From NCBI RefSeq assembly GCF_003334765.1, contig NZ_QOWT01000056.1: a DNA stretch of 11,286 nt; one strand, 5' to 3'. Every line of letters begins with the position of its first letter. Position 1 is the stretch's first letter. The notes beneath the pieces were generated by a model that saw nothing but the letters and a program-made list of their open reading frames with translations, was not told the DNA's origin and ran no database searches. Both the position numbers and the translations under genes were made by a program. This DNA is from Escherichia coli. Lineage in GTDB: Bacteria; Pseudomonadota; Gammaproteobacteria; Enterobacterales; Enterobacteriaceae. Below are positions 10,642 to 10,966 of this stretch, piece after piece.

Positions 10642-10867
10642 AGCAATATTCGCTATTTTTATGTAATAATTTTATAAATGCGTTCAAAATAATAATCAAG
10701 TACTAATAGTGATATTTTAAGGTCTGATTTTTACGTGATAATTCAGGAGACACAGAATGCGCATAAAAATAACAGCATAAAACACCTTACCACCACCCAA
10801 GAATTTCATATTGTATTGTTTTTCAATGAAAAAATATTATTCGCGTAATATCTCACGATAAATAACA

Positions 10868-10887
10868 TTAGGATTTTGTTATTTAAA
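10868..10887 (+). promoter_or_regulatory. GAD box (GadE/RcsB binding site) in the gadB promoter region
   Basis: Exact match to the 20-bp GAD box TTAGGATTTTGTTATTTAAA as I recall it for the gadA and gadBC promoters. It lies 80-99 bp upstream of the gadB ATG inside a long AT-rich stretch (10640-10966) typical of this H-NS-silenced, GadX/GadW-controlled promoter. Confidence 0.75.
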
Positions 10888-10966
10888 CACGAGTCCTTTG
10901 CACTTGCTTACTTTATCGATAAATCCTACTTTTTTAATGCGATCCAATCATTTTAAGGAGTTTAAA

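Follow-up and report, generated by a model that had tools for sequence, protein, structure and literature searches.

The 325 bp that precede gadB in this stretch of DNA are, with high confidence, the regulatory region of the Escherichia coli gadBC operon, which encodes glutamate decarboxylase B and a glutamate/GABA antiporter. For the window (the whole analysed stretch of 11,286 nucleotides), the present analysis shows which sequence elements are there, how they are spaced, and how well they are conserved, and occupancy by GadE and GadX, as well as dependence on GadE, have been published for the identical K-12 sequence. The control region itself is already known; the finding is real but ordinary, and the placement of its parts agrees with the textbook picture. 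As the gadBC promoter is among the best-characterised stress promoters of E. coli, the result carries little weight as a discovery. It does confirm that a reading made from sequence alone was right about the positions of the GAD box, the promoter, and the boundary between the operons, and it singles out the parts of the textbook picture that are more weakly supported at gadBC, namely GadW binding in vivo, direct repression by H-NS, and termination after pqqL. The promoter (gadBp) has reportedly been characterised by Castanie-Cornet & Foster 2001, Ma et al. 2003, Tramonti et al. 2002/2006, and Seo et al. 2015.

The window is the ydeO'-ydeN-ydeM-yddA-yddB-pqqL-gadB' segment of E. coli K-12 in reverse complement. 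The gene order annotated in MG1655 (NC_000913.3) is gadC-gadB-pqqL-yddB-yddA-(yneP)-ydeM-ydeN-ydeO, with all genes except yneP on the minus strand, and the window thus corresponds to the reverse complement of roughly 1,571.7-1,583.0 kb. Its main landmarks are the following:

3670-5355: open reading frame of yddA, in agreement with the MG1655 order

5393-7765: open reading frame of yddB, in agreement with the MG1655 order

7810-10605, plus strand: coding sequence of pqqL, with which the Fur-regulated yddA-yddB-pqqL operon ends, identified as an open reading frame and annotated in MG1655 and other genomes

10612-10641, plus strand: putative intrinsic terminator of pqqL, with a 10-bp GC-rich stem (one G-U pair), a 5-nt loop, and an AUUUU tail

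10642-10966: AT-rich gadBC control region, with a GC content of 27.7%, the minimum among all 325-bp stretches of the window

10967-11286, plus strand: 5' part of the annotated gadB coding sequence, with the ATG at 10967-10969, truncated at the window end

The operon structure and Fur regulation of the upstream genes have been described previously (PMC3855560, PMC6793856). From the end of pqqL to the gadB ATG there are 361 bp, the same length as in MG1655, and the pqqL-gadB spacer is 100% identical to that of K-12. The segment 10560-11000 was matched in 5,407 of 5,426 complete E. coli genomes, with a coverage of at least 80% in 5,395, and was 100% identical to several genomes, the K-12 record included, in which it is annotated as pqqL followed by gadB. 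Compared with the described K-12 gadBC promoter, it is therefore the same locus, with zero sequence difference in 10560-11000, the same neighbouring genes and GAD box, and ChIP-exo peaks at the same positions once coordinates are converted; to that description, the sequence-only reading adds only the insulation by the pqqL hairpin. Across the 5,409 matching records, identity over 10560-11000 was at least 99% in 2953, 95-99% in 1223, and 90-95% in 1220. In E. coli MS20658, which was isolated from blood, the annotation gives pqqL as a pseudogene without its N-terminus, and the spacer and gadB are intact.

Published MG1655 positions were transferred by the relation window = 10967 - (v3 coordinate - 1572045), with v3 = v2 + 1976 for positions given in the older MG1655 version. 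We infer this offset ourselves; it agrees both with the position of the gadB start that follows from promoter island 1570060 (see below) and with the peak distance of -62.5 from the transcription start site (TSS).

The hairpin occupies 10612-10636 and the AUUUU follows at 10637-10641, so 10642-10966 runs exactly from the hairpin tail to the ATG. Its GC content of 27.7% is lower than that of the window as a whole (43.4%) and that of pqqL (46.6%), and only 0.2% of all 325-bp stretches in the window are as low in GC. The description of a very AT-rich 325-bp tract between the pqqL hairpin and gadB is thus correct in its coordinates as well as its composition, and the gadB operon and the upstream cluster are indeed physically adjacent, separated by the same 361-bp spacer as in MG1655.

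Two features mark the site at which GadE would act:

10868-10887, plus strand: GAD box, site of the GadE/RcsB heterodimer, an exact match to TTAGGATTTTGTTATTTAAA (function from PMC2887963)

10861-10892: GadE ChIP-exo peak P3 (PMC4918353 Suppl. Table 1, v2 1570144-1570175, -62.5 from the TSS), mapped to the window

The sequence TTAGGATTTTGTTATTTAAA occurs once in the window, on the plus strand with 0 mismatches to the published box; even with up to 3 mismatches allowed, only 0.01 matches would be expected by chance. The GadE site sequence given in PMC4918353 is identical to it. The centre of the box (10877.5) lies approximately 63 bp upstream of the gadB TSS, and the -35 element begins 16 bp after the box. 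This is the published geometry, described for gadA, which puts the centre of the box 63 bp ahead of the TSS and leaves 16 bp between the box and the -35 element (PMC2887963). In K-12, which has the identical sequence, deletion of gadE lowered gadB from 2532 to 29 FPKM, a log2 fold change of -6.44 (PMC4918353). The exact box and the activation by GadE/RcsB that had been proposed for it are consequently well founded, the latter on the matching geometry, the ChIP-exo peak that covers the box, and the collapse of gadB in the published deletion strain. The GadE motif as printed in the text of the ChIP-exo study, TTARGAWWWWAAATA, differs from the GAD box by more than 2 mismatches. This discrepancy is treated as a fault of the compressed consensus, with the site itself regarded as sound.

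In a scan of one genome per species across 100,044 species, the exact 20-mer was found in 11 places. Eight of these are in Escherichia (two each in two genomes named E. coli, two in Escherichia sp. E1V33, and one each in E. albertii and E. whittamii), and all eight lie 79-80 nt upstream of an ATG of the gadA or gadB type. The proteins that start there open with MDQKLL (MEQKLL in E. albertii) for the gadA type or MDKKQV for the gadB type. The other three matches, in metagenome-assembled genomes of Lentisphaeria and Bacteroidales, have no gad gene downstream and were treated as chance. A separate case is E. coli strain 4/4 (NZ_CP023826.1), in which an IS1 element ends approximately 25 bp before the gadB ATG, with hipA beyond. 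The match to the window starts only at 10957 in this strain, whose gadB is thus preceded by neither the GAD box nor the gadB promoter and would need IS1-derived or other signals, if it is expressed at all.

Between the GAD box and the start codon, the elements of the core promoter can be assigned as follows:

10904-10909, plus strand: -35 element TTGCTT, which starts 16 bp after the GAD box and is invariant in all alleles and lineages examined

approximately 10917-10930, plus strand: RcsB box CGATAAATCCTAC, with approximate boundaries, a repression site at high RcsB, assigned by comparison with gadA

10927-10932, plus strand: -10 element TACTTT, at a 17-bp spacing from the -35 element, placed from the -35 element and the TSS geometry

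10939-10940, plus strand: gadBC TSS, giving a 5' UTR of 27-28 nt, derived from the ChIP-exo distance of -62.5 and the GAD box centre at 63 bp

10955-10960, plus strand: Shine-Dalgarno sequence AAGGAG, conserved in gadA and in all alleles

The -10 element is weak, with a match of 3/6 to TATAAT, which fits a promoter that needs an activator. It is also the reason why a scan with the sigma-70 consensus did not find the real gadB promoter; such a scan is uninformative for an activator-dependent promoter. The RcsB box is described as lying directly upstream of the -10 element, with the gadB copy differing by a C for a G at its left end (PMC2887963). In the window, the box abuts the -10 element, starts with CGATAAATCC and so carries the C predicted by that study, and is identical to the gadA copy save for the first base. 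An inverted repeat (I6) has AACATTAGGATTT, the left GAD box half, as one arm and AAATCCTACTTTT, in the region of the RcsB box, as the other; this agrees with a published comment that likens the left half of the box to an RcsB half-site.

A comparison with the gadA promoter of the acid fitness island, based on an MG1655 alignment, separates the shared from the specific parts of this region. The GAD box of gadA is identical to that of gadB at 20/20 positions, the block GATAAATCCTACTTTTTTA, which contains the RcsB box and the -10 element, is identical as well, and the two promoters also share the -35 element TTGCTT, the Shine-Dalgarno sequence, and the spacing. Beyond the GAD box on the upstream side, in contrast, similarity is only scattered, the spacer measures 210 bp at gadA and 361 bp at gadB, and the GadX peaks are found at approximately -106/-128 at gadA compared to -184 to -268 at gadB. 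The in vitro work on the heterodimer was performed with gadA and not with gadB (PMC2887963).

Farther upstream, the region is occupied by GadX. The published peaks and a motif match are located as follows:

10651-10775: three abutting 41-bp GadX ChIP-exo peaks (PMC4918353 Suppl. Table 3, mapped from v2)

10651-10691: peak P8 (-268 from the TSS)

10694-10734: peak P7 (-225 from the TSS)

10735-10775: peak P6 (-184 from the TSS)

10985-11025: GadX ChIP-exo peak P5, inside gadB (+66 from the TSS; PMC4918353)

10720-10739, plus strand: 19/20 match to the GadX/GadW motif AKGKCTGWTWTTWWYMYVAK derived from ChIP-exo (chance expectation 0.01)

The peaks that cover 10651-10775 have signal-to-noise ratios of 42-50. 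Deletion of gadX reduced gadB only 1.5-fold, and GadW was not detected at gadBC in vivo by ChIP-exo, for which exponentially growing cells at pH 5.5 were used (PMC4918353). Sites for both regulators had been proposed here. The four GadX peaks and the 19/20 motif bear this out for GadX, but the GadW part is unconfirmed at gadBC in vivo. Binding of GadW at gadBC is said to rest on in vitro footprints (Tramonti et al. 2006).

Within the distal block, a 17-nt direct repeat (ATTTTTATGTAATAATT, ATTTTTACGTGATAATT) is present at 10655-10671 and 10727-10743, 72 bp apart and inside peaks P8 and P7/P6; judged by its sequence and position, it may mark repeated GadX/GadW half-sites. The ydeO-ydeN spacer is the other very AT-rich stretch of the window, where 325-bp windows of less than 33% GC start at approximately 68-285. 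Published GadX ChIP-exo peaks P10 and P9 for ydeN, which is repressed by GadX, map there to 212-237 and 374-404, and the window therefore holds two GadX-bound regions approximately 10 kb apart.

Conservation within E. coli was assessed in an alignment of seven alleles with identities from 100% to 91.9%. The GAD box (0/20 positions variable) and 10891-11025 are invariant, and the GadX-motif block 10711-10749 contains 2 variable positions. Between the GadX sites and the GAD box lies a segment that behaves very differently:

10776-10860: hypervariable spacer, in which 31/85 columns vary among the seven E. coli alleles

Alleles diverge from K-12 by 7-19% in this segment, whereas the final 106 bp of pqqL differ by 0-2.8% and the initial 94 bp of gadB by 0-1%. 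In the literature examined, no description was found of this sharp contrast between operators that do not vary and the 85-170 bp of hypervariable DNA that separates them. In lineages whose spacer is 74-87% identical, the fixed blocks are the GAD box, CTTGCTTAC-TTATCGATAAATCCTAC-TTTTTT, the 5' UTR, ATTTTxAxGTGATAAT, and AAAATAACA, and the rest drifts; of these, ATTTTxAxGTGATAAT belongs to the GadX/GadW motif match and is kept in deeper Escherichia lineages. Among individual alleles, that of O157:H7 has 16 differences from K-12 in 10694-10860 and 0 in either flank (195 bp on the upstream side, 200 bp on the downstream side), and B2-type alleles diverge by 18-19% in 10776-10860 and by 2.8% in the adjacent pqqL coding DNA.

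Such a cluster of strain differences could reflect relaxed constraint, a recombination patch, or selection. We consider it improbable, though worth stating, that approximately 10750-10860 (85-170 bp) is a hotspot of regulatory divergence in which the binding of H-NS, GadX, or another factor tunes gadBC in a lineage-specific manner, rather than plain relaxed constraint. The hypervariability might bear on how E. coli lineages are known to differ in acid resistance.

A further reading is that the AT-rich tract is mainly a promoter island, that is, an H-NS-silenced relic of horizontally acquired DNA with non-productive promoter-like sites, and that genuine control is confined to the proximal ~110 bp from the GAD box to the ATG. 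The gadB/pqqL spacer is indeed listed among 78 promoter islands, as 1570060_392 (v2 1570060, 392 bp; window ~10585-10976), and was bound by H-NS in all three compiled genome-wide studies, those of Grainger, Kahramanoglou, and Oshima (PMC3661553). Like the H-NS-silenced islands described by Shavkunov/Ozoline, it is very AT-rich and H-NS-bound in all compiled sets (PMC3661553). The hypervariability of 10750-10860, as in weakly constrained DNA, and the much shorter upstream region of gadA, with only scattered similarity to gadB beyond the GAD box, point in the same direction. Unlike most islands, however, the spacer was flagged as foreign by 0/5 predictors, and gadB is transcribed normally (PMC3661553). 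Promoter-like sites are not in excess either, with 4 found by a simple promoter scan and 3.3 expected. The distal part, moreover, is covered by the strong GadX peaks, and its GadX/GadW motif block has been retained both among E. coli alleles and in deeper Escherichia lineages. The relic reading accounts for the hypervariable middle of the tract but not for its GadX-occupied, conserved distal block, and we regard it as unlikely. The regulatory reading of the whole tract is preferred.

The spacer could in principle also hide an unannotated small gene or a small RNA, which appears highly improbable. A 7-codon open reading frame (MRIKITA, 10758-10781) has the look of a leader peptide, with an AGGAG 7 nt before its ATG, and frames of 20-37 codons are present on both strands. 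The ATG at 10758, however, is changed in 5/6 other E. coli alleles, so that this frame is probably meaningless, and the 37-codon frame is broken by one-base indels and lies in the most variable part of the spacer. The small frames were rejected as candidates on these grounds, a start codon that is not conserved and indels that disrupt the longer frames. Nothing is annotated in the spacer of MG1655, and Rfam models gave no match in the region at E <= 1 or in the whole window at gathering thresholds.

With respect to H-NS, two overlapping 9/10 matches to its high-affinity motif TCGATAAATT are found at 10910-10925, in the spacer between the -35 and -10 elements and overlapping the RcsB box. Over the whole window there are 6 such 9/10 matches, compared to 1.7 expected. 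These motif matches may serve as a lead and are not proof. Among H-NS targets with strong evidence derived from RegulonDB, gadA is included and gadB is not (PMC4918353 Suppl. Table 5), and part of the H-NS effect on gadB may thus be indirect. The effect of H-NS on the gad system passes largely through gadE, gadX, and rcsD. Silencing by H-NS, as proposed from the sequence, agrees with the occupancy in three data sets and the GC content of 27.7%, but curated direct repression applies to gadA and not to gadB; direct H-NS repression of the gadBC promoter is inferred.

Taken as a mechanism, these elements would combine in the following way. The weak promoter (-35 TTGCTT, -10 TACTTT, with a start approximately 27 nt before the ATG) depends on the GadE/RcsB heterodimer bound to the GAD box near -63, and the RcsB box that abuts the -10 element would mediate repression when RcsB is highly active. 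A distal array at approximately -165 to -290 is bound by GadX, and reportedly by GadW in vitro. H-NS on the AT-rich DNA would keep the promoter quiet until the activators and sigma-S accumulate in acid or in stationary phase. On the upstream side, the Fur-regulated yddA-yddB-pqqL transcript would most likely end at the conserved GC-rich hairpin with its short U tract, and an end just after pqqL would leave the two units under separate control.

The predicted free energy of the hairpin at 10612-10636 is -21.2 kcal/mol (z = -4.3), and 0/200 shuffled sequences fold as well. Its stem and U tract are kept in 7/7 E. coli alleles, and the stem is also found in two deeper Escherichia lineages. With its GC-rich stem of 10 bp and -21 kcal/mol, a position 6 nt past the stop codon, and UUUU immediately behind the stem, the hairpin has the usual form of functional intrinsic terminators. 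A scan with a terminator consensus did not call the hairpin, because its 8-base tail contains 4 T and at least 5 are required. In Escherichia sp. E1V33, the stem is kept (-17.2 kcal/mol) and the U tract is replaced by ACUCUGG, a sequence difference that hints that conservation of the stem may serve another purpose than intrinsic termination, for example protection of the 3' end. Published Term-seq tables contain no 3' end for pqqL or gadB, possibly owing to poor expression of pqqL (PMC7815308).

Insulation of the acid-resistance operon from the upstream operon by the pqqL terminator had been asserted outright. The strong, conserved hairpin favours it, whereas the tract of only 4 U, its loss in E1V33, and the absence of a Term-seq 3' end weigh against it; we regard this insulation, and efficient termination at the hairpin, as likely but presumptive. 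An experimental test of it was not found in the literature examined. Published expression values are informative in one respect. In the same culture, pqqL was at 17 FPKM and gadB at 2532 FPKM (PMC4918353), and as gadB expression is almost entirely GadE-dependent, the two units are independently controlled in that direction. With gadE deleted, gadB retains 29 FPKM, close to the level of pqqL, and low-level read-through is therefore possible.

The units could also be separated without the hairpin as the main agent. It would then be a stabiliser of the 3' end or a weak terminator, and the separation would come from Rho inside pqqL, a roadblock formed by an H-NS filament, and the gap in promoter strength, with some read-through into gadBC when Fur is inactive. 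Support for this comes from the features that weaken the terminator, namely the four U residues missed by the consensus scan and the E1V33 stem that has outlived its U tract, from the H-NS occupancy of the pqqL-gadB spacer, and from the closeness of the residual gadB and pqqL levels. It also comes from a published bicyclomycin-sensitive region of Rho-dependent termination inside pqqL (MG1655 1573502, window ~9510; PMC7815308 Supplementary file 2). Against it stand the stem strength, position, and immediate UUUU noted above, which resemble those of functioning terminators, and the retention of both stem and U tract in every E. coli allele aligned. We hold this alternative to be a real but minority possibility, and termination at the hairpin remains the preferred explanation. 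A second bicyclomycin-sensitive, Rho-dependent region has been reported at MG1655 1579674, which corresponds to window ~3338 at the 3' end of ydeM (PMC7815308).

The upstream cluster had also been called iron-regulated, and published data agree with this. The genes yddA, yddB, and pqqL are co-transcribed and derepressed in a fur mutant, and PqqL increases on iron chelation (PMC3855560, PMC6793856). A search with the 19-bp Fur consensus gave no match within 3 mismatches, neither at the published box nor at the half-consensus. The published putative Fur box GGGAATGGTTATCATTAG was nonetheless found by eye at 3667-3684 on the minus strand, where it overlaps the yddA ATG. Co-transcription, derepression in the fur mutant, and the presence of this box make "iron-regulated cluster" a fair description. 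A perfect GATAATCATT half-consensus is also present at 3636-3645, 22 bp upstream of the putative Fur box.
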